Virus record (IMG/VR): IMGVR_UViG_3300037882_000312
Direction: 5' to 3' (one strand)
Length of the DNA: 41,166 nt
Source of the DNA: a virus
The notes under the pieces are model-generated. The model was given only the letters and a program-made list of their open reading frames with translations, ran no database searches and was not told the origin of the DNA. Positions within the stretch are counted from its first letter, which is position 1. Every line of letters starts with the position of its first letter. Below, piece by piece: positions 14,130 through 41,166 of this stretch. The position numbers and the translations under genes are program-made.

Positions 14130-14537
14130 ATGGCCGAACTAGGCTTTCAAGTATCAACAAAGACAAACGATGGAACAATCTTTGTCATTGCAGATGCAAC
14201 ATATCAAGGCTTCTCACAGAAACTAGCAGAAGCTTTAGATCCAAGTGGTGCCGAGTCGCTACTACAAGCCATGGCTAACGCCTTCACAGGCTCTCAACCA
14301 ATGACAACGCAAGCGATTGCACAAGCATTCAATGCAACTGTAATCACACCACCGCAAGATGCATGGGGTCAGCCAGCGAATGCTGCCCCTACTAACGGCC
14401 CAGTATGTAAGCACGGAGAACCAGCAAAGCAAGTTCCTGCTGGTGTATCCAAAGCATCGGGAAAGCCTTATCGTGCTTTTTATGCTTGCTCACGACCACA
14501 GGGCCAGCAATGCGACTTCAGAGCAAACGCTTCTTAA
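14130..14537 (+). CDS. Hypothetical DNA-binding protein (135 aa) with a C-terminal topoisomerase-type zinc ribbon.
   Basis: CKHGEPAKQVPAGVSKASGKPYRAFYACSRPQGQQCDF resembles the C-x-(C/H)...G.pyF.aCs..p..C.f zinc-ribbon pattern of Topo IA and GRF-type fingers. Confidence 0.55.
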   Translation: MAELGFQVSTKTNDGTIFVIADATYQGFSQKLAEALDPSGAESLLQAMANAFTGSQPMTTQAIAQAFNATVITPPQDAWGQPANAAPTNGPVCKHGEPAKQVPAGVSKASGKPYRAFYACSRPQGQQCDFRANAS

Positions 14538-14815
14538 TGTCGTTGGTGGAGCCGGGTAAGCCTTCTTACCCGGCCTTCACCGGTACCGAAGCTTGTGCAT
14601 CTATCGGTAATGAACATTTCTGCACAGAAGAAAGAGACTTCACACACTATGAAACACTTCGTAATGTGTGTGCCACTTGCCCACTATTAGTATCTTGTTT
14701 TAATTGGGCATTACACAATGAAGACTTCCACTATTGGGGAGGATCTTCTGCAATCGAACGGCGAAAGATCCGTCAAGAACTTAAACTGGAAAGAAAGAGG
14801 AGTGTCGCAGCCTAA
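14537..14815 (+). CDS. whiB: WhiB-like Fe-S transcription factor (92 aa).
   Basis: The start moves to the ATG at 14537, overlapping the upstream TAA. Four Cys are present, including CATCPLLVSC (CxxCxxxxxC), followed by HYWGG (the G[VI]WGG turn) and the basic tail RRKIRQELK. Confidence 0.85.
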   Translation: MSLVEPGKPSYPAFTGTEACASIGNEHFCTEERDFTHYETLRNVCATCPLLVSCFNWALHNEDFHYWGGSSAIERRKIRQELKLERKRSVAA

Positions 14816-16197: not shown

Positions 16198-16577
16198 TGG
16201 CTGCCGACCCAGAGCTTCTCAAGGCTGTGGTCGAACACTATGGTGGAGAAGTAAGAGAAGGCTATTCAAAGCCTGTTAGATGTTGCTTTCATAACGATAC
16301 TCGAAGGTCTGCTGTTATGAGTACAGACGGCGAGAAGGCAGGGCTTTACTTTTGCCACACTTGTGGCATAGGTGGAGATGCATATTCATTACTCATGTGG
16401 AAAGAAGGGGTGGACTTTCGTGTTGCTTTCGATAGAGCGGCTGACATTGCTAAACGAGTTGGCTACGACATATCACAAAAAGATAAACGAGGAGACGGTC
16501 TCTTACCTAAAAGGTCGGGGGTTCAGTCAGGAACTGGCAAGCGAGCATCTACTGGGAAGCGTACCAGTCGACTGTGA
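16197..16577 (+). CDS. DnaG-type primase, CHC2 zinc-finger part (126 aa as read in this frame).
   Basis: CCFHNDTRRSAVMSTDGEKAGLYFCHTCGIGGDAYSLL is a CHC2 zinc finger. After about residue 95 the frame reads low-complexity sequence (GKRASTGKRTSRL), while primase-like sequence continues in the +1 frame. Confidence 0.7.
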   Translation: MAADPELLKAVVEHYGGEVREGYSKPVRCCFHNDTRRSAVMSTDGEKAGLYFCHTCGIGGDAYSLLMWKEGVDFRVAFDRAADIAKRVGYDISQKDKRGDGLLPKRSGVQSGTGKRASTGKRTSRL

Positions 16578-17070
16578 TCCGAGCCATGTCCAGTTTATCG
16601 GATGGTTATCCATCCCATATCGAGTCGTCAATGGCGTTGCAGGTTTCAAGTTCAGAAGGATCGATGAACTTCCGGGGCCTAGATACATGGCACCAATGCA
16701 CCAACCAGCAAGATTGTTCAACGCAGTTGATCTACAAAAGCCTTCGGATACCATTGCAATTTGCGAGGGAGAGTTGGATGCAGTCATTGCTAGTCAACTC
16801 TTGCCTTCAGTTGGAGTGCCGGGTGTTAAAGCTTGGCGACCACACTTCAATAGATTATTTGGTGGCTATCGAAGAGTCCTTATCTTGGCAGACAATGATG
16901 ACAAGAAAGATGGATCTAATCCGGGGATGGAGTTGGCCGAGAAAGTTTTACAAGAAGTTGAACACGCAGAATTGATACCACTTCCACTCGGAAGTGATGT
17001 AAACTCTATAGTATTAGATGAGGGTTTAGATGGGCTACGAAGGAGACTGGGAATAGATGAGCGAGTATGA
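16372..17070 (+). CDS. DnaG-type primase, linker plus Toprim part. The true N-terminal boundary is uncertain.
   Basis: INEETVSYLKGRGFSQELASEHLLGSVP is the typical primase post-zinc-finger segment. ICEGELDAVIAS and LILADNDDKKDGSNPG are Toprim motifs. The informative sequence starts near 16470. In-frame TTG codons occur at 16447 and 16459. Confidence 0.7.
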   Translation: MEMHIHYSCGKKGWTFVLLSIERLTLLNELATTYHKKINEETVSYLKGRGFSQELASEHLLGSVPVDCDPSHVQFIGWLSIPYRVVNGVAGFKFRRIDELPGPRYMAPMHQPARLFNAVDLQKPSDTIAICEGELDAVIASQLLPSVGVPGVKAWRPHFNRLFGGYRRVLILADNDDKKDGSNPGMELAEKVLQEVEHAELIPLPLGSDVNSIVLDEGLDGLRRRLGIDERV

Positions 17071-18964: not shown

Positions 18965-19372
18965 TTACTTGCCGTAGTCTTCCTTTAGGAATTTGCCACA
19001 GTAAGGCCAAGGCTTAGAGCCTCGATCAACATAGATGTGAAGAGCTACATAGAACTGTTCGAGCAAGGTGGAATCCTTCGGTTGCTTGCCGCTGCTGCCA
19101 CCATGTGCAACCCAAGTCCTTGGATACTCGATCTGGAATGCCCCCTGAAACTGTTTGCGTTTGCCGCTGACGGCGTTGAGACGACCAGATGATTCACACA
19201 TAGCCAATTTCTGCCACGAAACCGGCAGTTGATCCAAAGATAAGTCCGGAATCTCTACAACTTTTGGAACTACCTCTTTAGGTTTTATCTCGAGGTGAAT
19301 CGGGGCGTTTGGGGTCAGCGTAATCGCCAACCCCAAAGCCACCAATCCGATTATGAATCGGTGATGCATCAT
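18965..19372 (-). CDS. rpf: Rpf-type (resuscitation-promoting-factor-like) transglycosylase with an N-terminal signal/anchor (135 aa).
   Basis: The start moves to ATGATG at 19372, with aaggag directly upstream. The TM segment is HHRFIIGLVALGLAITL. VSWQKLAMCESSGRLNAV...FQGAFQIEYPRTWVAHGG...LEQFYVALHIYVDRGSKPWPYCG matches W..LA.CES.G...GG.QF...W...GG...Q..A....G..WP.CG. Confidence 0.8.
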   Translation of the reverse strand: MMHHRFIIGLVALGLAITLTPNAPIHLEIKPKEVVPKVVEIPDLSLDQLPVSWQKLAMCESSGRLNAVSGKRKQFQGAFQIEYPRTWVAHGGSSGKQPKDSTLLEQFYVALHIYVDRGSKPWPYCGKFLKEDYGK

Positions 19373-19493
19373 TTCTCCTTCCACATCAGGGCTGTAACCA
19401 GCCCGAGCATAGGTATTACCATGAGTAGTGGTTGCCCCTCGGCTATCCCAACAGGGAGAGTAAAGAACAACAGAATGAATAAGAGGAATCCAA

Positions 19494-19967
19494 TCATAGG
19501 CTAACCTCTTCACCAAAGTCCTCGATTGACCACCATTCTTCACCCGAGAATCCAGCTCGAGCCTCGGAATCTTGAAGCCAATAGAACACTTTATCGTCAT
19601 GCGGTAGTTCAGATGTTTCTCCATTGAATCCATAAGGAATAACTCCAAGGGTTGTAGTTATCTGCCTCTTACTCTTGTCCTCTTGGTCTGTAATCTCCAG
19701 AGTTGCAGAGTAATAAAGCGGATTCATAAGAGCCTCAGAAATTACAGGGTTAGTTGTCTCGAAATCATTCATAATTCTTAGCGAATTACCAAGCCTTCTC
19801 GACATAACATCTTCTAACTCCATAAGAACAGGGCTACTAGATCCGATTGACTCAAAGTTGCCGTTGATTTCAACAGTTCCATCAAGCCGATTAGATTCTT
19901 GGTCTGTATCCCACTCCCAAGTCTTAGTCTCGGTGTCGTAGGTGATGATGAAAGAATGGCGAGTCAT
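19494..19967 (-). CDS. Hypothetical acidic protein (157 aa).
   Basis: Long ORF. The start overlaps the upstream stop (ATGA). Confidence 0.6.
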   Translation of the reverse strand: MTRHSFIITYDTETKTWEWDTDQESNRLDGTVEINGNFESIGSSSPVLMELEDVMSRRLGNSLRIMNDFETTNPVISEALMNPLYYSATLEITDQEDKSKRQITTTLGVIPYGFNGETSELPHDDKVFYWLQDSEARAGFSGEEWWSIEDFGEEVSL

Positions 19968-21960: not shown

Positions 21961-22443
21961 TTATCGGCTCGCATTGACTAGCACCTCCTCGAGGTCTTTC
22001 AGACCTGCCTCGACTTTATGGTGCAACTCATTACGCATAGAAGCGAAAGAGGCAGGAGGCCAACCTGCACCGAATACTCGGCGGAGAAGCAAGGCGAGAG
22101 AGTGTCCATTCACTAACTCGAGAGCCTTATCGAGTGCCTTATTCGCCTCGGCTACCTGCCCCAACTCATAAAGATAAGCCCCTCGAATCGCCTCGAGTGC
22201 TGCCGAATCTTGCCCGAGTAATCCGAGGGCGGTAATAAAGGCGAGAGAATCCTCGCTATCTAAGGTGATACCTATTGCACCGAGTGCATAGTCTCGAATC
22301 TGCACACTCTCGGCGATTCCAAGAGTGGCGGTCTTGATTGCAACCTCCTCGAGCATTCTCGAATCTTGGAAAGAATCCAAGAGTGAATCGAGTGCATTCT
22401 TAGCCTCGAGGTGAGTAGGTAAATCGGTCTTGATGTCTTTCAT
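21961..22443 (-). CDS. Hypothetical helical-repeat protein (160 aa), first gene of the leftward unit.
   Basis: Long ORF adjacent to the divergent control region. It is Ala/Leu-rich and looks helical and TPR-like. I recognised no catalytic motif. Confidence 0.6.
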   Translation of the reverse strand: MKDIKTDLPTHLEAKNALDSLLDSFQDSRMLEEVAIKTATLGIAESVQIRDYALGAIGITLDSEDSLAFITALGLLGQDSAALEAIRGAYLYELGQVAEANKALDKALELVNGHSLALLLRRVFGAGWPPASFASMRNELHHKVEAGLKDLEEVLVNASR

Positions 22444-22610
22444 AGTAATTGCCTCATTCTGTAGGTAATGAATCGAGAGAGAGATTCCCTCGAGGTCTCA
22501 ATTATGAGGTTTCAGCTCGAAAGAATCAAGCACCTATTAGATCGTGTTGCCGGTAATTGACCCCCTCGAAAGTAAGCGAATTACAAGGGTTTCAGAGATA
22601 CCAGAGAATC

Positions 22611-26853: not shown

Positions 26854-27000
26854 ATGTTCGGAGTAAAAAAGGGTGCAGTAGCTAAGGCTCTAGTTCTTGG
26901 CCCAATCATGGGTAAGAAGTCTGCATCAGGCAAAGCAGGAATGCAGAAGCTTGGCGAAACAGGAAAGCCAGCATCAGCAGCAGGAAAGAAAGCTAAGTAA
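26854..27000 (+). CDS. Lys/Gly/Ala-rich microprotein (48 aa). It is not in the supplied ORF track.
   Basis: ggaggtg lies upstream. Hand translation gives MFGVKKGAVAKALVLGPIMGKKSASGKAGMQKLGETGKPASAAGKKAK. Confidence 0.5.
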   Translation: MFGVKKGAVAKALVLGPIMGKKSASGKAGMQKLGETGKPASAAGKKAK

Positions 27001-27261: not shown

Positions 27262-27637
27262 AGGCCCATACATTGGTAGGCAAGCAGCACAATCCATTAC
27301 CGGTGGAGCATACGGTGAGAACACAGAACTCACACAATTACAGACCGCTCCCGGAGTTCCATTAGCAGCAACTGAAACAGGTGCAATGGGTGGGGGAATG
27401 GGCCCCATGATTGCAGCACCTGCTATGCCAAACAGAAACTTTTCTACACCAAATCCAAATGTAGATCAAGAGATTACATATGGTGCAGGTTTTGGTGCTG
27501 GCCCGGGTAATGAAGTATTACCTATTCCACCACAAGCACCGGATGAAACTGCCACACTTGTCCGTCAACTTATTGCCCTATATCCAGATCCAGACTTGGT
27601 TCGATTAGGTCAAAGATTAGATTATGAGAAGCGTTAA
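27254..27637 (+). CDS. Hypothetical virion-module protein (127 aa).
   Basis: The start moves to the ATG at 27254, with ggagg upstream. The stop overlaps the start of the giant gene. Confidence 0.55.
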   Translation: MAEGPYIGRQAAQSITGGAYGENTELTQLQTAPGVPLAATETGAMGGGMGPMIAAPAMPNRNFSTPNPNVDQEITYGAGFGAGPGNEVLPIPPQAPDETATLVRQLIALYPDPDLVRLGQRLDYEKR

Positions 27638-30600
27638 TGGCAGGAAAAACCGGAGGCACATTTGGTGCTGGTAGTCTCGGTGCATCGCTAAGTTCAATTC
27701 CTCAAGAAGGAACAGCAGCTTACGATACATACATTCAAGCCCAGCAATCTAAGTATTTAAGTCCAGATTTTGCCAAGCAGTTAGCTGCTATGGCTAAGGC
27801 ATACCCTGCTGCATCTGTCGGCACCGTAATGGGTCTTACAAAATCTGGAGCCCCTATCGGTGGCAATACAGCCAATGCTATGACCACACTCGATGGATCA
27901 GCATTGATTGATGCACAGCGTAACGCAGCCATTGCTGCTGCTGCTAAGTTGAAGGAACAGAACTCTGCAAAGAAGGGTTCACCTGCTGACTTCTTAGCAC
28001 CACTTACTCGTACTGCTTTCATGCTTTTATCAACACCATTTGAAATGCTAGAAGCCACCGTTCGTAACGGTGTATCTGGCAAGGGTGGCATGAATGTTCT
28101 TGATGAGACTCAAACAGGGCAAGCTCTTATCAACCTTTTCAAAACAGGCAAGATTGATGTAGGTACTGGTTTTCTTGGTGCAGATCAAAACTCTGCGGTA
28201 GGTAAAGCATTACTTAATGCAAAGATTGCTGCTGGCCCTACTATGAAGGGTGGAGTTCCTTGGACTTATTCAAGTGGACTTACACAAGCATTATTCGATA
28301 ACCCAGAGACTAAGGCCGCTAGAACATTCCAAGCGGTTTCAGGATTCGTTCTTAACCTAGCAGCAGACCCACTTACTTATGTTCCCGGTGTAGGTTTACT
28401 TAAGATCGGTAAAGAAGCTGGAAAGGTTGGCGTAACACTTCGTGTTGGGCCAAAGGCCGCAGCTCGTGCAGCAGAAGCGAAGGCAGCACCGATCAAGGCT
28501 GTGGCTCGTGATGTTGAAGATGTCATGGGTGAAGTCGGTAAAGTCCGTGCAGAAGCAAGAGCTGCATCTGGCGACATCAATATGCTTGAAGCAGACATTA
28601 TCAAGCACCAAGATGATCTCAACACTATCGCCGAAAAGGTAGATAACACATACCAGACTTATTACAAAGCAAAGTCTGAAGCAGATTTATTAGATGCAGA
28701 ATACGGTCAACTCCGTCAACAGCGTGACACTTTACTTGCAGGACTTAAGTCTGCACAGGATACAAGTGGTCAGCTTGTTGGACAGGCTCGTAAGGCTGAA
28801 GACCTTATGGCTCACCGTATTGAACTCAATACTGCTGGTCGTGCAGCAGAAGTTCAAAGCATCCTTGATGAAAAAGGTTTTGATGAGGTAGTCCGTGTAG
28901 GACAAACACTCACAGAGCAAGAGCAGTTGGCTCCCGGACTTATCCATACTCTTGATGAAGCAGCACTTAAAAAGGGTGATCGTGCAGCAACTCAAGGTAT
29001 CCGTAATGGAGTAGATGCTGTAGTTCGTGTAGCAGCAAAGCAGAAGCCACGCCTTATCAAGTGGACAGGTCTTATCAAGGCTGGAGATTCACCACAGGCA
29101 ACTCGTGTATCTAACGAGATTGGTTCCAACCTTATTGATATTGGAACTGCTGCTGGTATCCAAGAGTCTAAGTTGCAGACTGTTCTCGATGTAATCGATA
29201 CACCCGGTGCAACACACGCAGAACTTATTGATTCAGCAAAGAAGGCTGGACTAACAGAACAACTATTTGCAGCATATGAAAGAGCCGGTATCCAAGGCTT
29301 TGAAAATGTTGGTGCAACTCGTGGCATGGGTGGTGGCGGATACGCTTACTTCCCACGAACAGTAGATCCATTCGATGCAAAGATTTCTGACTTTGGTCGC
29401 TTCAAGGCTGATGCTATTAACTCACCTGACATCAACGATCTTGGTGTTCAAGCACTTACAACTAAGGGTGCAATTACCCAGCAGGTTACAGGGCTAGTCG
29501 AAGGTGCAGCAGCACCTCGCCTTACAGTCATGGAACAACTTGCCAACATAAACAAAGAGCTTTCCGAAATGGGCAAGGTTACAAAAGGTGTCCAAAAGGA
29601 ACTCGCCAAGGCTGAAGAGGCTTGGAAGAATAATCTTAAGTATGTTCAAGATCGAGTCAAGTCTGATGATGAGGCTCGTATGCTTCTTGAAGAAGCACGA
29701 GGTCGCAAGCAATTAGCGATGGAAGCAGAGTTTGGTCTTATGACCATAGGTGGTAAGCAGATCCTTGATTACCAGCAAGCTGCTAAAGCATTCTTTGGCC
29801 CAATGGGTCAGAACGCTGCAAAGTTTATTGCTGTCCACTATGGCCCAGAACAATACGATGATCTATGGCGAGCAATGAATGGCAACATCACAGTTGATCT
29901 AGCCAAGCGTTTGGCTGCTGCTACTTCTGAAAAAGAAGTTATGGGATTACTTGCCGGTGAAGTTGGCCTAGAACTATCTCGTGGAACCAGAGTTGGACTT
30001 GCAGCTCAGTCTCGTGCAATCCAGTTCCAATCAAGTTTCTATGCACCTAACTCATTGAAGTTACACCATGAAGGTTTTGCTAACTTCCTGCTTAACGCAG
30101 AGAATGAAGCACGATCATTTTTGAGGACTAATAAAGTAACTGCACCATTCACACGGTTTGCACCTACTAAGAATCTTATTCACCTAGACGATGTAGATAC
30201 ATTGGTCAAGGAAATGAATGACACTTTGCCATTCCTTAAGGCATCTCCTGAACTACAGAAGACATCCATTAAGGCAATGATGGCTGCTACAACCTCGACT
30301 GAACGCTTCAATGTATTCATTGACACGCTTAAGTCTTTGGTTAAGGAGAAGGCTCCTAACCTAACAGAAGAACAAATCCGTATGCTTAATGATGCGGCTC
30401 GAGTATTTAAGAAGGAAGCAGATGCTAACCGAAAGTTCTTGGCACAAGTTGCTGGCAAGGACATCGGAACAAGAGAATTTAAGGTCGCTGGAAAGACCCA
30501 GAAGTTCACTCAGTTGGATCCGCTTATTGACTCTCAACTTGCAAATTTTATCAAGTGGCCTGACATCGACTCAATCCGTCAGCTCACAGGAAAGACTAGA

Positions 30601-33546
30601 AACCTTTTCTCACAGTCACAAAATGCACAGCAACTCAGAACAGTAACTACTGATCTATTCGATTCATTCTTCAAGCAGACAGTTCTCGTAGGTCGTGTTT
30701 CATACATCCTACGAAATGTTGGTGATATGCAGGTTCGTTCATTCCTTGGTGGATCTACAACCTTGTTCAATCACCCATTGCAGTTTGCTGCAATGATGAT
30801 GGCTAACCCAGAGGGTAATGCAATCGCTAAGTTTGCTAGTCGCTGGTCTCGCTTCGATAACACAGTCTTTGGAACAAACTTTAATAAAGCAGTTGAAGAG
30901 CTTGATGCAGTTGGCTTTAAGTCAGCGGCACTTGCAGATGCAGATAAGTTTGCCGTAATGATGTCTCGATCTATCGGCGTTGGTATGGGGCAAGGCACTC
31001 GTGGTCTTTCACAGATCCTACCTACCGGTATGCGTTTCATTACACCAGAAGAACGAGGATTCAATCGGGCATGGGCCGGAGCAATCCTTCAGTTCCGTGA
31101 GTCAGCAATGGCTCGTCTAGTTGCAGGTGGACTCGATGGTGGCATCAAGGGTGCAAATGGAAAGATTACTCCTTGGTTCAAAGAAGCAGAATCTTTCATT
31201 GCCAAGAAGCAAGCACAAGGCATGGATCTATCTCGTGATTATGAGAAGTTTATTGTTGACTTTATGTTTGAGACAGAGCAGGGAATCTTGCTTCGTACAC
31301 AGATTGCCAAGGTTGATGAACTCAATCGTGCATTGATGCTTGATGCAGATGAGGCTATTGCTCGTCAAGCTATGGAGAATTACTTCAAGGTAGTTACAGA
31401 AGGTGTCGATAACCTATCTGGTGGCCGCCGAGAACTGCGTGACTTTATTGCCGGTAAGGCAATGGTTGCTGTAGACGGCAAGAGAACTCCCGGATTCAAT
31501 CCAAAGGGAACTCAGTCAAAGGATGTATGGCTTGCCAATATCCTTAAGGGATATGTTGATTCAACAGACATCTCAAAGGCTATCGGTCAACTCAAGCTTC
31601 CAACAGATGATGTTCGTGCCGTTGCATCCTTCAAGGGTCAATGGGATCGTGCAGCATCTAAGTTCTTCCAAGTCTCTGCATCGATTGAAAAGCGAGCAGC
31701 ACTTGGCCCAGAGTTTAAGCAGCAATACTGGAACGGTGTTGCAGAGAACATGAACCTTCTTACCAAGGATGAGGCAGTCAAGATACTTGCTATCGCTGAG
31801 AAGGAACTTCGTGGCGTTAAAGTCTTTGGACTTAAGGCAGGGTTTGAGAACCCATCATTGGTTCGTATGCGTGAGGCAATCAAGACACTCGATGATCGAG
31901 GACTTGCTGCTGATGATATGCATACAATCGCAAATAACTTTGCTGCTAATAAACTACAGAAGCTTTACTACGATGCAATGCGACAGAAGCAGTATGCAGT
32001 CGCAGCTCGTTTAGTGGCTCCTTTCGCAGCAGCGTGGGGTAACACTATTGCCACATGGAGTAAGTTGATTGGCACAGATGTAGCCAACACCTTCCGCCTA
32101 CAAGGCAAGGCTCGTACTTACAAAGCTGCTAATGCTTTTGAATTCTTGACTCACCCAGAGACTGGTGTCATTTACGAATGGACTGGTCAAAACTGGAATG
32201 ATCCAAGCCAAGGATTTATCTACAAGGATCCAACCTATGGTGATCCTCGTATGGTTATTCCTCTAGCAGGTAATGCACTTGGCTGGATGCTTTCAACAGC
32301 AACTGGTGAAGCAGTTCCATCGATGCCAACATCGCTATCGATTCCATCTTTGAACCTTGCATTCAGCAATGAATTGCTACCGGGTGTAGGCCCTGCTATT
32401 CAACTCTCATTGGGTCGAATAATTCAGAGCCAAGAAGGTTGGGCAGCAGATCAACTTCGCAATGTGATCTATCCGTTCGGAGCCCCTGAAGGCAAGACTG
32501 GAATTGTCGAGTCATTTACCCCTGCTTGGGCCCAACGAGTTCTTTATGGTCTAGGTGTTAACTCATTCGAGGAGAAGAGTATGTCTACTCTTCGACCATT
32601 GATGACATACCTTGCATCAACTGGTAACTATGGAGACTTCCCACTTGGTGGAGAAGCACAAGCAAAGCTTCTAGAAGATGCAGGTAAGGTCAACCGAGTC
32701 CTCGCTTTATGGCGTGGTATCACACAGAATGTGGCTCCCGGATCTATTGCACCTCAGATTCTTGCTAAGGACAAAGAAGGTGAACTCCATGTTCAGGCTC
32801 TTATGTTCAATGACTTCTTGCAGATCCGTGCAAACAACCCAGACAGTTATGAAATTGCTGTAGCCAAGTGGGCTGACAAGTATGGCGAGTCAGCACTCTT
32901 TGCTCTGGTATCTGGATCTCGTGGTGGTATTACACCTACTGGAGATGCATGGAACTTCTATCAGAACAACCGCAAGGATGCCAATGCCTTGCCAAATGCG
33001 TTTGCCCTCTTCTTCCCCGGTGGACAATACTCACAAGAATTTGCTAAATGGCAAGCACAGCGTGGCCAGCGATTCAAGTTATCACCTGCTGAAATGCAGA
33101 TGGAAGCGGCTCGTTATGTATACACAGCTCGTAAGGCTAAGTTACAAAGCGATGAGGCCATCGCTATCCAGCAAGGTGCAGATCCAAAGCAAGCCCATCA
33201 GGTCTACATGACTCGTAAGGCAGCAATGGATGATGACTTTGGTGGACAGCCAGACTTCCGTGCAGCAGGTGTTCCTCGTGAGACACTCGTTAAAGAAGTA
33301 ACTCAGGCTCTTAGTAACCCTAAGTTTGCTGAAACTGAATCAGGTAAGGGCTTGGCTAAGTTCTTACAGGCTCGTGAATCAGCGTTGAATTCTGTTGCAG
33401 AAGCAGGATACAAGACACTTACAGGTAAAGCTGTTGAAAATGTAGCACAATGGTTAGACCAAACTGCTTACCAGATAATCTCCGAACACCCAGATTTCTC
33501 TGTAATGTACTGGCGTGTATTTGCAACAGAGACAGGAAATAACTAA
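27637..33546 (+). CDS. Giant virion protein (1969 aa), candidate internal/ejection (DNA-transfer) protein.
   Basis: A single uninterrupted 5.9-kb ORF that makes up 14 percent of the genome. It is largely helical with coiled-coil stretches (about aa 290-420 and 620-680). It lies between the portal and scaffold genes. I recognised no catalytic motif. Confidence 0.7.
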   Translation: MAGKTGGTFGAGSLGASLSSIPQEGTAAYDTYIQAQQSKYLSPDFAKQLAAMAKAYPAASVGTVMGLTKSGAPIGGNTANAMTTLDGSALIDAQRNAAIAAAAKLKEQNSAKKGSPADFLAPLTRTAFMLLSTPFEMLEATVRNGVSGKGGMNVLDETQTGQALINLFKTGKIDVGTGFLGADQNSAVGKALLNAKIAAGPTMKGGVPWTYSSGLTQALFDNPETKAARTFQAVSGFVLNLAADPLTYVPGVGLLKIGKEAGKVGVTLRVGPKAAARAAEAKAAPIKAVARDVEDVMGEVGKVRAEARAASGDINMLEADIIKHQDDLNTIAEKVDNTYQTYYKAKSEADLLDAEYGQLRQQRDTLLAGLKSAQDTSGQLVGQARKAEDLMAHRIELNTAGRAAEVQSILDEKGFDEVVRVGQTLTEQEQLAPGLIHTLDEAALKKGDRAATQGIRNGVDAVVRVAAKQKPRLIKWTGLIKAGDSPQATRVSNEIGSNLIDIGTAAGIQESKLQTVLDVIDTPGATHAELIDSAKKAGLTEQLFAAYERAGIQGFENVGATRGMGGGGYAYFPRTVDPFDAKISDFGRFKADAINSPDINDLGVQALTTKGAITQQVTGLVEGAAAPRLTVMEQLANINKELSEMGKVTKGVQKELAKAEEAWKNNLKYVQDRVKSDDEARMLLEEARGRKQLAMEAEFGLMTIGGKQILDYQQAAKAFFGPMGQNAAKFIAVHYGPEQYDDLWRAMNGNITVDLAKRLAAATSEKEVMGLLAGEVGLELSRGTRVGLAAQSRAIQFQSSFYAPNSLKLHHEGFANFLLNAENEARSFLRTNKVTAPFTRFAPTKNLIHLDDVDTLVKEMNDTLPFLKASPELQKTSIKAMMAATTSTERFNVFIDTLKSLVKEKAPNLTEEQIRMLNDAARVFKKEADANRKFLAQVAGKDIGTREFKVAGKTQKFTQLDPLIDSQLANFIKWPDIDSIRQLTGKTRNLFSQSQNAQQLRTVTTDLFDSFFKQTVLVGRVSYILRNVGDMQVRSFLGGSTTLFNHPLQFAAMMMANPEGNAIAKFASRWSRFDNTVFGTNFNKAVEELDAVGFKSAALADADKFAVMMSRSIGVGMGQGTRGLSQILPTGMRFITPEERGFNRAWAGAILQFRESAMARLVAGGLDGGIKGANGKITPWFKEAESFIAKKQAQGMDLSRDYEKFIVDFMFETEQGILLRTQIAKVDELNRALMLDADEAIARQAMENYFKVVTEGVDNLSGGRRELRDFIAGKAMVAVDGKRTPGFNPKGTQSKDVWLANILKGYVDSTDISKAIGQLKLPTDDVRAVASFKGQWDRAASKFFQVSASIEKRAALGPEFKQQYWNGVAENMNLLTKDEAVKILAIAEKELRGVKVFGLKAGFENPSLVRMREAIKTLDDRGLAADDMHTIANNFAANKLQKLYYDAMRQKQYAVAARLVAPFAAAWGNTIATWSKLIGTDVANTFRLQGKARTYKAANAFEFLTHPETGVIYEWTGQNWNDPSQGFIYKDPTYGDPRMVIPLAGNALGWMLSTATGEAVPSMPTSLSIPSLNLAFSNELLPGVGPAIQLSLGRIIQSQEGWAADQLRNVIYPFGAPEGKTGIVESFTPAWAQRVLYGLGVNSFEEKSMSTLRPLMTYLASTGNYGDFPLGGEAQAKLLEDAGKVNRVLALWRGITQNVAPGSIAPQILAKDKEGELHVQALMFNDFLQIRANNPDSYEIAVAKWADKYGESALFALVSGSRGGITPTGDAWNFYQNNRKDANALPNAFALFFPGGQYSQEFAKWQAQRGQRFKLSPAEMQMEAARYVYTARKAKLQSDEAIAIQQGADPKQAHQVYMTRKAAMDDDFGGQPDFRAAGVPRETLVKEVTQALSNPKFAETESGKGLAKFLQARESALNSVAEAGYKTLTGKAVENVAQWLDQTAYQIISEHPDFSVMYWRVFATETGNN

Positions 33547-34337: not shown

Positions 34338-36085
34338 TGGCAGATCCAGTAAAGCCTAAAGGCACTATTGACATCAATGCACTTCTCGAAGCCGAGAAGG
34401 CAAGAGCCGCTAAGGCTAAGGCGGAGTCAGAAGCTGCTGCTAAAGCCAATGCTGCTAAGAAGGCAGCAAGTCAATACGATCAAGCAGTCAAGTTTGTAGT
34501 TGGCCAGAAGAATGATCGCATTCAAACACTCGAGCAATCTATCGCAGATAGCCTATTTGGCATCAATCGTATTGTTAGAAACATCGCTGCTGGAACTCAA
34601 AGCCCCGGTGATGAAAGAGAACTTAAGCGTTTAGAAAAACTTTACAACCAAGCAGTAGAACAACAGAACACTCTTCTTAAAGAAGTAACTGGTCTTACAA
34701 AGAATACTGCTAAGTTAGATACAAAGACTGGCAAAGTAACAGTTGGAACTACGCCGACACCTGAAGCAGGTGGAGTAGTAGGTGGAGCAACAAGTGAAAA
34801 AGATACTGACAAAGATGGAATTCCAGACATCACAGATAATCTTCCTAACTACCCTAATCCAAAGCAAGATACTGGAAAGGTAGGAACAGGGCCTACTGCT
34901 GCACAGGCAGCAGGTGCAATGGGTGGTACTGGTGGTGCCGTAGGCAACACAGGTGGTGCAACTGGTGGTAATGCTGGAAAAGATAAAACTGGAAATGTTC
35001 CTCCAGCCAAACCTAAAGCAAAGACTGCTGTAGATCCAAATGCCTTGACACCAGAACAGCAATCAAAGCTTGGTGAATATGGTAGCAAATATCTTATCGA
35101 TTATTTTAAGGCTAACTACCCAGACATCTACAAGAAACTTGAAAGCATGGCACGACTCAATGAGTCTGCTGCCAATGTTGAGGCATACCTTTCAGGAACT
35201 GCTTGGGCTAAAGATGTTAACCAAAGAACTTATGCACTTATTGGTGCTGCCGAACTTGCTAATGGTCTCAAGTTAGATCAGGCAACTAAAGATACTTACC
35301 GAGATCAATACCTTGCCAAAGTTAAGAGCATGGATGAGATCAAGTATGACATTGGTCTAAAGACTATTGCTCAGTTCCAGTTGGATACAGTTAAGCCAGA
35401 TGTTGCTAACTCTATCCGTGCAGGAAATACTTTTGCTCAGGCTGCTGCTGACTACATTGAGATCTATCGTAAGAACCTTGAAATTGCATCATCTGCCTTT
35501 AAGATAGATGATAAGCAATTTCAGACACTTCTTATTGGATCATCTAATATCAGCGACTTTGAGAAGAAGCTTCGCCGGACTGACCAGTATCTATCTCAGC
35601 CTAAAGTCCAGCAACAGATCAATGCCAACAAAATTATGGTTACTACCAAGTATCGTCAGTTTGGCTTGGCCCTTACTGCATCAGCAGCAGATAACCTTGC
35701 TAAGAATGTTTTCCTTGGAGATACATCTAACGAACAGATTGATGAGAACCTTCGCCAAGAAGCGGTTAAGTTGTTCCCAGCATTCCGTGATCGTATCCTC
35801 AATGGTGAGTCTCCGCTATCAATCGCAAGTCCTTATATTGGTGCAATCTCTCGTATCCTCGAGGTTCCAGAAGGTTCACTAGATCTTGAGGATCCAACAG
35901 TCCGTAAGGCAATGATTGGTTCAACAACAACTGTCGGAGACAAGACATCGTCAACAGTCACTCCATTGTGGCAGTTCGAGCAAGACCTATACAAAGACAG
36001 CCGTTGGCAATACACAGCCAACGCAAGAGCTAAAGCCGACAGCATCTTAGTTGATGTCGGTTCGAGATTCGGAGTGATTCCATAA
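34337..36085 (+). CDS. Virion-module protein (582 aa) with a coiled-coil N-terminus and a thrombospondin-type-3-like Ca-binding repeat.
   Basis: EKDTDKDGIPDITDNLPNYPNPKQD matches DxDxDGxxDxxDNxPxxxNxxQxD. A Gly-rich linker, GGTGGAVGNTGGATGGNAG, is also present. Confidence 0.6.
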   Translation: MADPVKPKGTIDINALLEAEKARAAKAKAESEAAAKANAAKKAASQYDQAVKFVVGQKNDRIQTLEQSIADSLFGINRIVRNIAAGTQSPGDERELKRLEKLYNQAVEQQNTLLKEVTGLTKNTAKLDTKTGKVTVGTTPTPEAGGVVGGATSEKDTDKDGIPDITDNLPNYPNPKQDTGKVGTGPTAAQAAGAMGGTGGAVGNTGGATGGNAGKDKTGNVPPAKPKAKTAVDPNALTPEQQSKLGEYGSKYLIDYFKANYPDIYKKLESMARLNESAANVEAYLSGTAWAKDVNQRTYALIGAAELANGLKLDQATKDTYRDQYLAKVKSMDEIKYDIGLKTIAQFQLDTVKPDVANSIRAGNTFAQAAADYIEIYRKNLEIASSAFKIDDKQFQTLLIGSSNISDFEKKLRRTDQYLSQPKVQQQINANKIMVTTKYRQFGLALTASAADNLAKNVFLGDTSNEQIDENLRQEAVKLFPAFRDRILNGESPLSIASPYIGAISRILEVPEGSLDLEDPTVRKAMIGSTTTVGDKTSSTVTPLWQFEQDLYKDSRWQYTANARAKADSILVDVGSRFGVIP

Positions 36086-37626
36086 TGGCAGAAAAAGTAA
36101 CGGCTAAATCCGGAGATACCCTTTCAGGTATTGCAAAAGCCAATGGCACTACTGTTGCCCAGATCCTTGCCGACAACCCAACGCTTGCAGCTCGAGCATC
36201 AGCAGGACAAACAGTTCTTTTTAGTGGAACTAAAGTAAAAATTACATCTCCACAAACAGCGACTAATCCTTATGCTGGAACAACTACTGGTGCAGGAGTA
36301 GGACTTGGTACAGCATCTAATCCAATTACTAATGCTGGAACGGTAAATACAACAACCCTTGAGGGAATTGCTAAAGCATCTGGCACACCTACACCTACAC
36401 CTACAGATGAAGGTGGAAATAATCCACCTGCTGGAGTAACTGAGGTTTCTCGGGTAGATAATAAAGATGGAACTTTTACTGTTACATACAGCGATGGAAC
36501 TACGAAAGTTATTGGAACTAAAACTACAACTGGTAAAAAAGTAGTCCGTACTTACTTTTCAGGATCAGGTGCAGCTCGTATTCAAATTACTGAATATGAT
36601 GACGGAACCACAGATCAGATACCTGCTCCTGAACAAGCAGCCGGTATGACACCTGATGATGTAAATAAACTTATCAATACTGCTATTGCTAATCAAAATG
36701 CAGAATTCCAGAAGATGCTTGCTGCACAACAGAAAGCACTTGAGACTGCTAAGGCAGAGCAAGTGGCAGCCCAGCGTAAGTCAGCATTCGATGTTATCCG
36801 GGAACGCTTTACCCAGATGGGTATTAAAGAGGTTGGAGATGACATTGCTGCAATCTTTGCTGGTAAAGGTGTAGATCGCTTTGGTAAGGCATTTGATGAA
36901 ATCCCTACAACTTCAGAAGGTTTCTACCTTCAGTTGATTAACACCAAGTCTTACTACGAACGCTTTGGTAAAGTCAATGAGGCTCGTTTAGCTGCTGGAT
37001 ACAAGGCACTAGATGAGAAGACAATCGTTGGAATGGAAGATGAATACCAGAAGGTATTGACTTCATACAATATGCCAACAGGCTTTTACGATCAGACAAC
37101 AGACTTCCAATCTTTCCTAAAGAACAACCTAACCAATGTCGATGTTGCAAACATCATTCAGGCATACCGTGACTTTGTAACCACAGGCACAGATTCCAAT
37201 GTTCGTAAGCAACTTAAGGATCTATACGGTATTGGTGACGAAGCTCTTACTGCATACATGATTGACCCAGCAAAGGGTCAGGGAATCCTTGAGCAGATTG
37301 CTGGCAAGAATATGAATACAGCAGCAGCTCTCATCGAAGGCCTAACAGCAGAAGAAGCAAATATGGCTCAGACCTACGGTGCAGGATCTCTTGGCTATGG
37401 ATCACAACGCCAGAAGTATTCACAGGTTCAGCGTGAACTCCAGACAACTGGAAACCTTGCTGCTATCTATGGTGAGAACTTCGGAGCCAAGGAAGCAATC
37501 GCTGCCGAGTTCGGTGGAGATGTCCAAGCACAAGCACAAGCAGCACGAATTAAGGCAACAGGTGCAGCAGCATTCGGTGGCACAAGTGGTATCGGATCTA
37601 AGGCACTAAGAGTCAAAACAGTTTAA
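36085..37626 (+). CDS. LysM-domain virion protein (513 aa).
   Basis: The N-terminal VTAKSGDTLSGIAKANGTTVAQILADNPTL...GQTVLFSGTKVKI is a canonical LysM peptidoglycan-binding motif. Confidence 0.7.
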   Translation: MAEKVTAKSGDTLSGIAKANGTTVAQILADNPTLAARASAGQTVLFSGTKVKITSPQTATNPYAGTTTGAGVGLGTASNPITNAGTVNTTTLEGIAKASGTPTPTPTDEGGNNPPAGVTEVSRVDNKDGTFTVTYSDGTTKVIGTKTTTGKKVVRTYFSGSGAARIQITEYDDGTTDQIPAPEQAAGMTPDDVNKLINTAIANQNAEFQKMLAAQQKALETAKAEQVAAQRKSAFDVIRERFTQMGIKEVGDDIAAIFAGKGVDRFGKAFDEIPTTSEGFYLQLINTKSYYERFGKVNEARLAAGYKALDEKTIVGMEDEYQKVLTSYNMPTGFYDQTTDFQSFLKNNLTNVDVANIIQAYRDFVTTGTDSNVRKQLKDLYGIGDEALTAYMIDPAKGQGILEQIAGKNMNTAAALIEGLTAEEANMAQTYGAGSLGYGSQRQKYSQVQRELQTTGNLAAIYGENFGAKEAIAAEFGGDVQAQAQAARIKATGAAAFGGTSGIGSKALRVKTV

Positions 37627-37787: not shown

Positions 37788-38261
37788 ATGTCCAATTACG
37801 AACTGGAAGAGGATGACTTCGAACTTGATTCGAACGATGTTCTCGGACAACTACGCAAGGCCAATAAGGCAAAAGAGAAGCAACTGAAGGAAATTCAGGA
37901 AGAGCTTCAAAATTTGCGTAAAGAAAAACGAGAGAGAACTATCTCAGAAGTCCTTACAGCTCGAGGAGTGAATCCGAAGATTTCGGCTTTCATTCCACAG
38001 GACATCGACCTCACGGAGGAATCGTTGTCGTCATGGCTTACTGAATACGGAGATGTATTCGGTGTGTCACAACCAAACCAATCAAACTCAGCGATACCAG
38101 AAGGTTTCGTAGATAATTACAAAAAGGCTCAAGCAACTGTAGATGGCGGCATTAGTGCTGATCGTGAACAGATGATTCAAGCCCAGATGGATGAGGCCGC
38201 TGTAAAGGGGCCTGAAGCATTGAAGCAATTATTTGCAGATCTTGGTAAGGCTGGGTACTAA
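37788..38261 (+). CDS. Scaffolding protein (157 aa).
   Basis: Acidic, coiled-coil-rich (KEKQLKEIQEELQNLRKEKRER) and immediately upstream of the major capsid gene. Confidence 0.7.
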   Translation: MSNYELEEDDFELDSNDVLGQLRKANKAKEKQLKEIQEELQNLRKEKRERTISEVLTARGVNPKISAFIPQDIDLTEESLSSWLTEYGDVFGVSQPNQSNSAIPEGFVDNYKKAQATVDGGISADREQMIQAQMDEAAVKGPEALKQLFADLGKAGY

Positions 38262-38282: not shown

Positions 38283-39206
38283 ATGGCAACCACTCAAATC
38301 TCTGGTGTAGGCAACCTCGTAGTCAATGCATATGACACATATGTAAGAGCTGCACTCCGCTCACTTCCTGTCATGCGTTCAGTCGCAGATGTACGACCAG
38401 TAGCCCTCACCAACCCGGGAACTACTCTCAAGTTTGCAGTTTATGCTAACTTGGCAGCAGCAACCACAGCATTAACAGAAACATCTGATGTAACACCAGT
38501 TGCATTGGCAAACCCATCACAGGTAACAGTTACTGTTACTGAATACGGTAATGCTGTTGAGCAGACAGAGAAGGTCAACATGGCCACATTCTCTTCTATC
38601 GACACCATGATTGGTGATGCAATCGCTTACAACGCTGCTGATACTTTGGATCAGCTTGTTGCAACAGCACTAACATCTGGAACAGTAGTTAAGTACGGTG
38701 GAAGCCGTACATCAACAGCTACTCTTACAGCTTCAGATGTTCTTTCAACAGCAATGCTTCGTAAGGCACAGACAACACTTCTTGAGGCTAACGCCCAACC
38801 TCGTGTTGGTGACCTTTACACATTGTTCATCCACCCACGCCAAGCTTTCGACCTTCGTGCCGAGACTGGTTCAGGCGGATTCGTGGACATCCACAAGTAC
38901 ACAACTGAAAATGTTGGAAACCTATTGACAGGCACCATTGGTGTTCTTGAAGGATTCCAAGTTGTTCAGACATCTCGTGTTCCATCAACAACATCCGGTG
39001 CATCTTCAGCTACTGTTTACTCAGCGGTTGCAGTCGGTAAGGAAGCTCTTCTTGAGGCTAATGTTTACGATGTGCAAACAGTCGTAGCACCTCAGATCGA
39101 CATCCTTCGCCGTAAGTCAGCACTTGGCTGGAAGTACTTCGGTGGCTGGGGCATTTTCCGTGATGCAGCAGTTTGCCGTTTGGAAACAGGCGGATCTGCT
39201 CTCTAG
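38283..39206 (+). CDS. Major capsid protein, HK97 fold (307 aa).
   Basis: The size, the position after the scaffold gene, and motif patterns typical of HK97-like MCPs support the call. Examples are VTEYGNAVEQTEKV, DTLDQLV and IHPRQAFDL...GVLEGFQVVQTSRVP. Confidence 0.85.
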   Translation: MATTQISGVGNLVVNAYDTYVRAALRSLPVMRSVADVRPVALTNPGTTLKFAVYANLAAATTALTETSDVTPVALANPSQVTVTVTEYGNAVEQTEKVNMATFSSIDTMIGDAIAYNAADTLDQLVATALTSGTVVKYGGSRTSTATLTASDVLSTAMLRKAQTTLLEANAQPRVGDLYTLFIHPRQAFDLRAETGSGGFVDIHKYTTENVGNLLTGTIGVLEGFQVVQTSRVPSTTSGASSATVYSAVAVGKEALLEANVYDVQTVVAPQIDILRRKSALGWKYFGGWGIFRDAAVCRLETGGSAL

Positions 39207-39851: not shown

Positions 39852-40568
39852 ATGACAACCATAATTGGGATTCAAGGTAAGGGCTGGGGTTTAATCGCAG
39901 CCGAATCCCTAATAGTGGGTGCAGATCAGAAGTTTATTGCTACCGGTATGGATAAGGTAGTTGAAAAGGGTGAGTATGTAATCGCTTTTGCTGGCGATGC
40001 AATCGCCGGGGATATAGCCCTACACAGTTGGAATGCTCCTAAGATTCCACGAGGTGTGAACTTAGATAAATTTATGATGACAGATTTATTGCCATCACTT
40101 AAGCAAGCATACGCAGACTATGGATATGACCCAGCACCTAAGACTGCCGATAACGATCCTAAAGATGGATCAGGTTTTGATGCATTGATCTGCCTTCGAG
40201 GAAAAATTTATCAAATTGATAATGACTTTTCTTGGGTAAGAGATGACCGTGGAATATACGGAGTTGGATCTGGAAGTTCATATGCACTTGGTGCATTGGC
40301 CAGAGCCACACTATCCCCAACGAATACAAGAACAGCAGCTAATGAAGCTCGTAAGGCAATAGAGATTTCCATCTCGTTTGACATAAACAGCGGTGGGAAA
40401 GTCAAAGTCATCACTCAAAGGGAGAAGCAAATGTCAGTTAAAGGCGAGAAGTACAAGTCACCATCTATGAAGAAGAAGCACGAAAAGATGGAAGGCAAGA
40501 AAGAAAAGATGATGGAGTATGGCCCTAAGAAGAAGGCTATGCCTAAGAAAATGGGCAAGAAGAAGTAA
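39852..40568 (+). CDS. HslV/proteasome-beta-like Ntn hydrolase (238 aa) with a Lys-rich C-terminal tail.
   Basis: MTTIIGIQGKG has Thr directly after the initiator Met, as in HslV. IAFAGDAIAGDI aligns with HslV IAGFAGGTADAF. GIYGVGSGSSYALGALARA aligns with IAIGSGGPYAQAAARA. ARKAIEISISFDINSGG aligns with AEKALDIAGDICIYTN. The C-terminal 45 aa are about 40 percent Lys. Confidence 0.75.
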   Translation: MTTIIGIQGKGWGLIAAESLIVGADQKFIATGMDKVVEKGEYVIAFAGDAIAGDIALHSWNAPKIPRGVNLDKFMMTDLLPSLKQAYADYGYDPAPKTADNDPKDGSGFDALICLRGKIYQIDNDFSWVRDDRGIYGVGSGSSYALGALARATLSPTNTRTAANEARKAIEISISFDINSGGKVKVITQREKQMSVKGEKYKSPSMKKKHEKMEGKKEKMMEYGPKKKAMPKKMGKKK

Positions 40569-40738
40569 TGAAGCCAGCAAAGATCAAGAAGGTTATGAAA
40601 GAGTTCAAATCAGGAACTCTTCACTCAGGATCTAAAAAAGGCCCTGTAGTTAAATCTCGCAAGCAAGCAGTTGCTATTGCGATGTCAGAGGCAGGAATGT
40701 CCAAGAAGGGCAAGAAGAGTGGCGGAAAGAAAAAGTAA
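40568..40738 (+). CDS. Basic microprotein (56 aa), DUF6496-like. It is not in the supplied ORF track.
   Basis: The start overlaps the upstream stop. Hand translation gives MKPAKIKKVMKEFKSGTLHSGSKKGPVVKSRKQAVAIAMSEAGMSKKGKKSGGKKK. The EFK.G.L.SGS...V.SRKQA.AIA.SEAG pattern is widespread in bacteria and phages. Confidence 0.6.
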   Translation: MKPAKIKKVMKEFKSGTLHSGSKKGPVVKSRKQAVAIAMSEAGMSKKGKKSGGKKK

Positions 40739-40994
40739 ACCAGACTCTCGCCTAAAGGCGGCAGGTGTATCTGGCTTTAACAAGCCAAAGAAAACTCCAT
40801 CACACCCAACGAAATCTCATGTTGTGGTTGCAAAGGTTGGAGACAAGGTGAAGACAATTCGCTTTGGGCAGCAGGGTGTATCTGGAGATAAGACTCCAAC
40901 AGCACGACAGAAATCATTCAAAGCTCGTCATGCTAAGAACATCGCCAAGGGCAAAATGTCAGCAGCCTATTGGGCAGACAAGGTGAAGTGGTGA
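40719..40994 (+). CDS. Basic small protein (about 91 aa) of a widespread phage family with a ...KSFKARHAKNIAKGKMSAAYWADKVKW C-terminus.
   Basis: The C-terminal motif is one I recognise from many marine and freshwater phages. The start is uncertain: GTG at 40719 is preferred over the track's TTG at 40671, because 40671 would overlap the previous gene by 68 nt. Confidence 0.6.
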   Translation: MAERKSKPDSRLKAAGVSGFNKPKKTPSHPTKSHVVVAKVGDKVKTIRFGQQGVSGDKTPTARQKSFKARHAKNIAKGKMSAAYWADKVKW

Positions 40995-41152
40995 AAAAGA
41001 AAACAGCATTCTGGGATAAAAAGAATCCCAATAAAAAATCTACTCCATTGACTCCGGCACAGAAAGCAAAGGCTAAGGCTGCTGCTAAGAAGGCTGGAAG
41101 ACCGTATCCAAATTTAGTAGATAACGCAGCAGCAAAGAGAAAGGCTAAGTAA
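40991..41152 (+). CDS. Basic small protein (53 aa) with a ...AGRPYPNLVDN motif.
   Basis: A GTG start overlaps the upstream TGA. The translation is VKKKTAFWDKKNPNKKSTPLTPAQKAKAKAAAKKAGRPYPNLVDNAAAKRKAK. Its 3' end is duplicated at 1-85. Confidence 0.55.
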   Translation: MKKKTAFWDKKNPNKKSTPLTPAQKAKAKAAAKKAGRPYPNLVDNAAAKRKAK

Positions 41153-41166
41153 TGGCAACTGGTACC
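41068..41166. repeat. Terminal direct repeat, copy 2, identical to 1-99.
   Basis: Base-by-base comparison with the start of the window. Confidence 0.95.

Follow-up and report, generated by a model that had tools for sequence, protein, structure and literature searches.

A putative HslV/BPH-like threonine peptidase joined in frame to a small basic protein in the late genes of a probable actinobacterial podovirus

The viral record IMGVR_UViG_3300037882_000312 of IMG/VR was analysed as one stretch of DNA of 41,166 nucleotides (the window), and the analysis concerns an open reading frame (ORF) of 238 amino acids (aa) near its right end. An original prediction, made from the sequence alone, had read this ORF, 39852-40568 on the plus strand with the start MTTIIGI, as an HslV/proteasome-beta-like N-terminal nucleophile (Ntn) hydrolase and as a candidate prohead protease. 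The ORF and its start were borne out and the protein is confirmed, by profile searches and a predicted structure, to be a small proteasome/HslV-type Ntn hydrolase belonging to the HslV/BPH branch ("group I"). The features identified in the ORF are the following, with conservation counted over 78 diverse family members.

39852..40568, plus strand: HslV/BPH-like core and small basic peptide in an in-frame fusion, 238-aa ORF
39852..40430, plus strand: core Ntn-hydrolase domain with a predicted proteasome-beta/HslV/BPH fold, residues 1-193, isoelectric point (pI) 5.85 (AlphaFold, Foldseek and profile against the PDB)
39855..39857, plus strand: Thr2 codon, putative nucleophile after removal of Met1 (Thr1 equivalent); Thr in 72 and Ser in 6 of the 78
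39903..39905, plus strand: Glu18 codon (Asp17 equivalent); Asp in 69 and Glu in 9 of the 78, Glu in the window
39954..39956, plus strand: Lys35 codon (Lys33 equivalent; Lys37 of Td-BPH); Lys in 77 of the 78
39993..39995, plus strand: Gly48 codon (equivalent of the oxyanion-hole Gly47); Gly in all 78
40119..40181, plus strand: acidic loop YGYDPAPKTADNDPKDGSGFD, residues 90-110, net charge -3, placed by alignment to the Cm-BPH stretch KEDEDDPYESS
40269..40271, plus strand: Ser140 codon in an invariant G-S/T-G motif (Ser129 equivalent); Ser in 52 and Thr in 24 of the 78
40420..40433, plus strand: internal Shine-Dalgarno-like GGGAG (40420-40424), a spacer of 6 nt and the ATG of Met194 (40431-40433)
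40431..40568, plus strand: Lys-rich "tail" of 45 aa, MSVKGEKYKS...KKMGKKK, net charge +13, residues 194-238, a small-protein gene fused in frame

The match to the Pfam family Proteasome (PF00227) is borderline, 22.9 bits against a cut-off of 22.4 and covering the C-terminal half only, and the family call therefore needed the evidence from PHROG, profiles and structure. Residues 1-209 of the ORF match PHROG 1040, "peptidase HslV family", with E=3.8e-25. A single-sequence phmmer search against solved structures placed two BPH proteins first (5ovu, E=2e-5), followed by proteasome beta5, and gave a weak match to HslV (E~0.65), while the family profile run against the PDB returned BPH at 1e-16, HslV at 3e-16 and proteasome beta subunits at ~1e-11 to 1e-13, the alignments being full length and running from Thr1 on. 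An AlphaFold2 monomer model, built from the alignment of the 78 family members, reached a mean pLDDT (predicted local distance difference test) of 90.7 and a pTM (predicted template modelling score) of 0.79. When this model was searched with Foldseek 1,241 PDB matches were obtained at E<=1e-3, led by BPH, HslV and proteasome beta subunits, with the BPH of Thiobacillus (Td-BPH) as the best match (E=2e-10, template modelling score 0.74 normalised to the target). Profile search, model and Foldseek together rule out a non-proteasome fold. An exhaustive search with a limit of E<=1e-3 returned 1,433 representative clusters, which with few exceptions are 175-200 aa long and align from residue 1, and in BFVD 39 phage proteins share the fold at E<=1e-3. 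The suggestion that the class had not been described for phages did not hold, given PHROG 1040, the BFVD matches and the PPH, AAH and CPH proteins already catalogued (PMC8665760); public annotation (PHROG, JGI) already gives the protein a name, "HslVU peptidase subunit" or "peptidase HslV family".

The window protein, which has no propeptide, retains all five catalytic residues, and they align with the residues Thr-1, Asp-17, Lys-37, Gly-50 and Ser-139 of Td-BPH, which were defined experimentally (PMC5777263). This confirms the register and shows that no catalytic residue is missing. The N-terminal Thr and the residues of Lys33 and Gly47 type proposed in the original prediction are thus present and conserved in the family, and the HslV-like sequence blocks that it listed carry catalytic residues, Gly48 lying in IAFAGDA and Ser140 in GVGSGSSYALGAL; the two glycines on either side of the latter, Gly139 and Gly141, are each found in 78 of 78 members. 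Judged by sequence and predicted structure, the window protein has the appearance of an active Ntn threonine peptidase. A pore loop has been described in BPH (PMC5777263); we infer that the stretch KEDEDDPYESS is the pore loop of Cm-BPH, in which case the acidic loop at residues 90-110 of the window protein would occupy the same place.

The C-terminus, described earlier as rich in Lys, Met and Glu, is real, with its 45 residues and net charge of +13, but it is not intrinsic to the protease and corresponds to a neighbouring small gene that has become fused to it. In the phage genome ct2KA10 (L091) a free-standing homolog of 53 aa (19419-19580, MSVKGEKYKSMAAMKKHEKNEPMAMKMKEYGKK...) unmistakably matches residues 194-238 of the window ORF; it lies directly after the p90 homolog, with the protease gene ~11 kb upstream. 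Within the clade of the window the fused in-frame form is found, as in the window itself, in L001 and many others, an overlapping ORF of 42 aa in the +1 frame in L002, L066, L081 and L085 and in many samples, and a separate ORF following a stop codon in L072 and L078. The core of some lineages has another small ORF as its fusion partner, one of the type MPKVGKKE(F/Y)PYTAKG. In every configuration an ATG lies two to three codons past the core motif ITQ(R/K) and is preceded by a Shine-Dalgarno-like element, and both element and ATG are retained from lineage to lineage, also with changes in the residues encoded there. The purine-rich element in the window reads AAAGGGAG (40417-40424), a string identical to the Shine-Dalgarno sequence upstream of the scaffold-like gene, and it uses AGG, which makes up 7.1% of the Arg codons of the genome. 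Since no stop codon intervenes, the small gene is read through from the protease gene in this lineage, and the tail is the leading member in a row of genes for basic micro-proteins; probably it is also translated on its own from the Shine-Dalgarno-like element and ATG at 40420-40433. Its charge resembles that of the products downstream, DUF6496 (+16), DUF6321 (+17) and p60 (+15), and the core is near neutral. Programmed frameshifting was considered for the out-of-frame tails and rejected, given their own Shine-Dalgarno-like element and conserved ATG, the forms that follow a stop codon and the distant free-standing copy. The role proposed for the tail, a signal directing the protease to the capsid or to DNA, is not supported, in view of the separate gene in ct2KA10 and of the forms that lie out of frame or after a stop codon elsewhere.

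The surroundings of the ORF were annotated by PHROG and Pfam scans covering ORFs of at least 80 aa. The genes closest to it, and those pointing to a host, are these:

37788..38261, plus strand: scaffold-like acidic protein, 157 aa, pI 4.55; phrog_7813 (unknown function); a homolog lies upstream of the major capsid protein (MCP) of ct2KA10
38283..39206, plus strand: MCP; phrog_1357, E=1e-64; 34.6% identity to the MCP of Streptomyces phage FlowerPower
39577..39849, plus strand: p90, the conserved upstream neighbour; phrog_10483; the protease start follows 3 nt after its stop
40568..40738, plus strand: small basic protein with DUF6496, 56 aa, +16; start codon overlapping the stop codon of the protease gene (TAATG)
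40737..40994, plus strand: small basic protein of DUF6321 type, 85 aa counted from the probable start, +17; phrog_7595, E=5e-36; DUF6321 on the L001 homolog; 90% identity to ct2KA10
14486..14815, 18968..19648 (minus strand) and 21964..22443 (minus strand): actinobacterial host markers, namely a WhiB-like regulator, PF06737 and DUF4192

An exact overlap of 99 bp between the two ends (1-99 and 41068-41166) shows that the window is a complete, circularly closed genome of ~41,067 bp. The late block runs in the order terminase, portal, a 1969-aa ORF, three proteins (one with LysM), scaffold-like protein, MCP, p119, p90, HslV-like protein and basic micro-proteins, and wraps to the window start with an SU10-adaptor-like protein and tail-fibre genes; the early genes include a DnaB-like helicase, a primase, a Cas4-type exonuclease, RusA, a sigma factor and the WhiB-like regulator. 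The HslV-like gene is the third gene after that for the MCP, in agreement with the head-gene position first assigned to it. The acidic protein upstream of the MCP, earlier called the scaffold, is there as described, its label as a scaffold resting on position and composition. The gene is tightly packed in the late operon, the protease start following the p90 stop by 3 nt and the protease stop overlapping the next start, and a scan for promoters and terminators around the HslV-like gene gave no convincing signals. The virus is a podovirus, and its host is probably a freshwater actinobacterium. Such a host is suggested by the WhiB-like regulator, an Rpf-type transglycosylase (PF06737, above the cut-off) and a match to DUF4192 (below the cut-off); the nearest isolates by MCP are Streptomyces podophages, consistent with these markers, and the relatives of the phage come from lake metagenomes.

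No AAA+ or HslU-like ATPase was found in the PHROG and Pfam scans, and the only proteins with a Walker A motif are a kinase and the DnaB-like helicase, which upholds the earlier statement that the genome lacks an HslU. The same scans, a search by sequence only in which several ORFs had no matches, likewise agree with the original prediction in revealing no canonical prohead protease. Neither the 1969-aa ORF nor the portal-proximal genes gave a Pfam or PHROG match to a protease domain, a search that a divergent domain could escape.

Some further observations were made on the genes of this genome. Very basic micro-proteins follow each other in tandem at 40431-41152 (tail peptide +13, DUF6496 +16, DUF6321-like +17, p60 +15), and a further Lys-rich ORF of 48 aa, +10, lies just after the portal (26854-27000); such proteins may be DNA-associated internal head proteins. 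The DUF6321-like gene (window 40737-40994; ct2KA10, L091, 20119-20373) is conserved far above the rest of the genome and spans phages of different host phyla, with 90% amino-acid identity between window and ct2KA10 and 67-85% nucleotide identity to the roseophages/cobaviruses SIO1, P12053L, ICBM2 and CRP-4/5/9 and to cyanophage KBS-S-2A. The 1969-aa ORF (27637-33546), itself without any Pfam or PHROG match, is the positional counterpart of gp9 of FlowerPower (~1635 aa) and of an ORF of 1764 aa in ct2KA10, and its product is presumably an internal or ejection protein. A virion-block protein of 513 aa (36085-37626) carries an N-terminal LysM domain (Pfam, E=2e-8), which suggests a peptidoglycan-binding virion protein. 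A frame of 232 aa with a GTG start (16372-17070) matches a stop-to-stop ORF of FlowerPower (29940-30587, minus strand), which coincides with the annotated gp57 DNA primase (29937-30569), as well as an ORF of ct2KA10, and is probably the real gene rather than the overlapping ORF 16574-16975.

When analysing the position of the gene in about 166 viral loci two slots appeared. The window clade, with 83 loci, has p90 followed by the HslV-like gene and then DUF6496, DUF6321 or p60, and the order MCP, ~100-aa protein, ~90-aa protein, HslV-like protein and basic micro-proteins is retained in contigs in which the HslV-like protein is only 47-51% identical. In the ct2KA10 clade, with 79 loci, the gene instead lies between the portal and the p134 homolog. 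As ct2KA10 is otherwise collinear with the window, the gene must either have changed slot or have been acquired twice. FlowerPower (Beephvirinae, L090) has the same module order and homologs of terminase, portal, MCP (34.6%), p90, adaptor and fibre; no HslV-like ORF was found in it (best E=0.46 in an unfiltered profile search) and its annotation holds no maturation protease. Its endolysin sits between terminase and portal, a non-structural late gene inside the module. The slot after the p90 homolog gp41 is taken in FlowerPower by gp42 (21963-22481), a hypothetical protein of 172 aa, similar in size and with no detectable homology to the HslV-like protein. Among 60 records of phages with a related MCP 58 lack the gene, the carriers being the two ct2KA10 assemblies only. 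Other phages have family members outside any recognisable head module: in Vibrio phage VpV262 at the end of the early/replication arm, in Psychrobacter phage D'Alembert amid small hypothetical genes, in Actinomycetia phage DSL-LC01 beside whiB and in Arthrobacter phage Pitbull at the right end of the genome. In contigs of 40-135 kb the family member stands at a strand switch.

No cellular homologs were recovered by profile scans of genome contigs, which were empty with one alignment and with another gave only four contigs from metagenome-assembled genomes (MAGs). Two of the four, L179 (JBMTBW010000020.1, "Ca. Nanopelagicaceae") and L180 (RFQL01000043.1, "Burkholderiaceae"), are phage-like, and L180 is plainly a phage of the ct2KA10 type with terminase, portal and HslV-like genes. 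Since phage contigs have been binned in these MAGs, the bins are unreliable as host evidence here.

The absence from FlowerPower, the two slots and the non-head contexts in other phages together fit a lineage-specific accessory late gene rather than a core maturation protease co-evolving with the capsid. The reading that we favour, and that we regard as probable while leaving real room for doubt, is accordingly that of an accessory N-terminal-threonine peptidase of the HslV/BPH branch, encoded in the late operon and not the obligatory capsid-maturation protease of this capsid lineage. A methionine aminopeptidase of the host would remove the initial Met and expose the Thr nucleophile, as has been demonstrated for Cm-BPH (PMC5777263), and by analogy with the dodecamer of HslV and the tetradecamer of BPH the subunits would stack into rings with the active sites facing an inner chamber. 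The enzyme would work late, in the cytoplasm and without HslU, the presumed actinobacterial host being expected to lack HslUV. With no unfoldase in the phage genome and no record of HslV in Actinobacteria (Table 1 of PMC8665760), the action of the enzyme would be on peptides, unfolded proteins or a few specific substrates.

Several observations weigh against this reading. BPH, the closest characterised relative, is inert on model substrates, which makes action on peptides or unfolded proteins an extrapolation, and literature searches on the function or the virion proteome of phage HslV-like proteins yielded descriptive mentions only, and neither an isolate nor a proteome of this lineage. Both clades, with more than 160 loci, stably retain the gene within the head-gene block, and its position in the ct2KA10 clade, directly after the portal, is the classical slot of a prohead protease, so that a virion-associated role is possible. 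The fused form, finally, predominates in two sub-clades that are only ~50% identical, and given this prevalence the basic extension could be useful on the enzyme.

This last point raises a separate question, whether selection maintains the basic extension as a functional element of the enzyme, for example an anchor holding the ring to nucleic acid or to acidic partners, with the unfused forms derived from it. Apart from the fused form being the commonest and occurring with three types of tail in the two sub-clades, proteasome-like subunits have C-termini that are directed away from the ring and have been proposed as interaction sites (PMC8665760), and in the AlphaFold2 prediction the tail appears partly helical. 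We consider the proposal doubtful, because ct2KA10 encodes the peptide in a gene of its own, at a great distance from that of the protease, and because the Shine-Dalgarno-like element and ATG at the junction are conserved and kept with a rare AGG codon. The lineages with the +1 frame or the stop codon are maintained in many samples, a single base may separate a fused from an unfused form (CAA in the window, TAA in L078), and a tail of this kind is missing from the P0121 clade and from nearly all of the 1,433 clusters of the family.

As to the role of the enzyme, it could be directed against the host, docking on a host AAA+ unfoldase (for example the actinobacterial ARC/Mpa, Cpa, ClpX or ClpC) and degrading host proteins. 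It would do so in the cell that makes it or, once packaged and ejected, in the next host. An active site under strong purifying selection in a phage that has no unfoldase of its own would agree with this, as would the spread of the family over unrelated phages in non-structural contexts, which is expected of host-manipulation genes, and late expression together with the virion genes would permit packaging. Against it, the present analysis identified no partner, BPH as the nearest solved relative has no known partner unfoldase, and HslUV should be lacking in the presumed host. A ring of 12-14 subunits would need to disassemble to pass the tail channel. A host-directed protease is judged unlikely.

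The role named in the original prediction, a prohead or virion-maturation protease co-assembled in procapsids that removes the scaffold or processes the MCP or the 1969-aa protein, its basic tail targeting the acidic scaffold or DNA, fares worse and is regarded as quite unlikely. It would account for the conservation of the head-block position at more than 160 loci, for the place beside the portal in the ct2KA10 clade and for the third place after the MCP in the window clade, held even at 47-51% identity; the active site is complete, the sequence scans revealed no canonical prohead protease, and an acidic scaffold-like protein (pI 4.55) stands opposite a tail of +13. Yet FlowerPower, with its homologous MCP and collinear module, does without the gene, as do 58 of the 60 phage records with a related MCP, so that the co-inheritance with capsid and scaffold genes expected of a prohead protease was not seen. 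The gene has shifted between two slots while the flanking genes remained collinear, family members stand amid early or unassigned genes in other phages, and the tail is separable, since relatives lack it, encode it in another frame or have it at a distance. Podoviruses that use a separate scaffold protein, T7 and P22 for instance, in many cases need no protease, which also counts against this role, and phiRIO-1, not a close relative, shows no processing and has no protease. A variant in which these phages have turned a BPH-like threonine protease into a head-associated enzyme, co-assembled in the procapsid and processing the scaffold, the 1969-aa protein or the basic micro-proteins, is judged distinctly improbable. 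That the protein is a catalytically dead ring with a structural or chaperone function, as the inertness of BPH on all model substrates tested and the Glu at position 18 in place of the usual Asp might suggest, can hardly be credited, as conservation is 92-100% at the nucleophile, the Lys, the Gly and the Ser/Thr, in the pattern of an active enzyme, the Glu is a conservative change recurring in 9 of 78 members and BPH binds epoxomicin productively.

On present evidence the favoured accessory peptidase is a gene of a known type that had already been annotated, and its most exotic-looking feature, the tail, is simply explained. Its interest lies in the fact that no substrate is known for any BPH-like, AAH, CPH or PPH homolog, BPH being inert in vitro. 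Small and abundant freshwater phages retain such an enzyme with a conserved active site and a fixed place in the virion operon, and offer a compact genetic system (~41 kb, no partner ATPase) for orphan ring proteases. If the enzyme acted on the capsid, the scaffold or the adjacent basic micro-proteins, it would be a new class of protease in phage morphogenesis; if it were head-associated, it would add a third structural class to the capsid-maturation proteases and give a BPH-like enzyme its first physiological role; and if its targets were host proteins, the virus would carry a proteasome-like degradation chamber of its own.

Of the known systems BPH (5ovs, 5ovt, 5ovu) is the most similar, being the best match of the window protein in phmmer, profile and Foldseek searches. 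The two share the Met-Thr start without a propeptide, the equivalents of Thr1, Asp17, Lys33, Gly47 and Ser129, an acidic elongated loop at the position of the pore loop, Ser for Thr in a minority of members and the lack of a partner unfoldase nearby. BPH forms a tetradecameric double ring with a highly acidic cavity. Identity is only ~20%, however, and BPH genes stand in stress-regulated cellular operons while the window gene stands in an operon of phage virion genes; BPH is recorded in neither phages nor Actinobacteria (Table 1 of PMC8665760). HslV (ClpQ) is similar in fold, size, N-terminal Thr and catalytic constellation, with a profile E value (3e-16) near that of BPH, but the window genome has no HslU, the partner ATPase whose gene is usually adjacent to that of HslV, and the window protein has a BPH-like loop insertion that is absent from HslV; "HslV without HslU" has already been noted in the literature for a jumbo phage.

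The phage proteasome homologs PPH, AAH and CPH, which radiate from BPH, were catalogued in 2021 by Fuchs, Alva and Lupas (PMC8665760), AAH and CPH, with the reference sequences WP_035979212 and WP_008185288, occurring in both Actinobacteria and phages. Like the window protein they are compact HslV/BPH-like subunits found in phages, the window protein being a member of PHROG 1040, and the function of all of them is unknown. PPH is shorter, ~140 aa compared to 193 aa for the window core and 175-200 aa for its relatives. The window phage carries actinobacterial host markers, whereas the survey of 2021 had no actinobacteria-specific phage with AAH, and neither a fixed head-block position nor a fusion to a basic micro-protein was described there.

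The canonical prohead proteases (HK97 gp4/S78, T4 gp21/U9, the Mu-type U35 and lambda C/S49-ClpP-like) are likewise encoded amid head genes; the slot after the portal in the ct2KA10 clade is similar to theirs, and the C-terminal extension recalls capsid-targeting tails, in resemblance only. They have Ser-protease folds of assemblin or ClpP type, in contrast to the Ntn Thr hydrolase predicted in the window, and they differ further in that the window gene is not conserved together with the capsid gene across relatives and that its tail can be separated as a gene of its own. Measured against the literature searched, three features appear to be new: a family member in a phage with actinobacterial host markers, fixed residence in the head block, in two alternative slots, throughout a large group of freshwater podoviruses, and recurrent fusion to a basic micro-protein gene.

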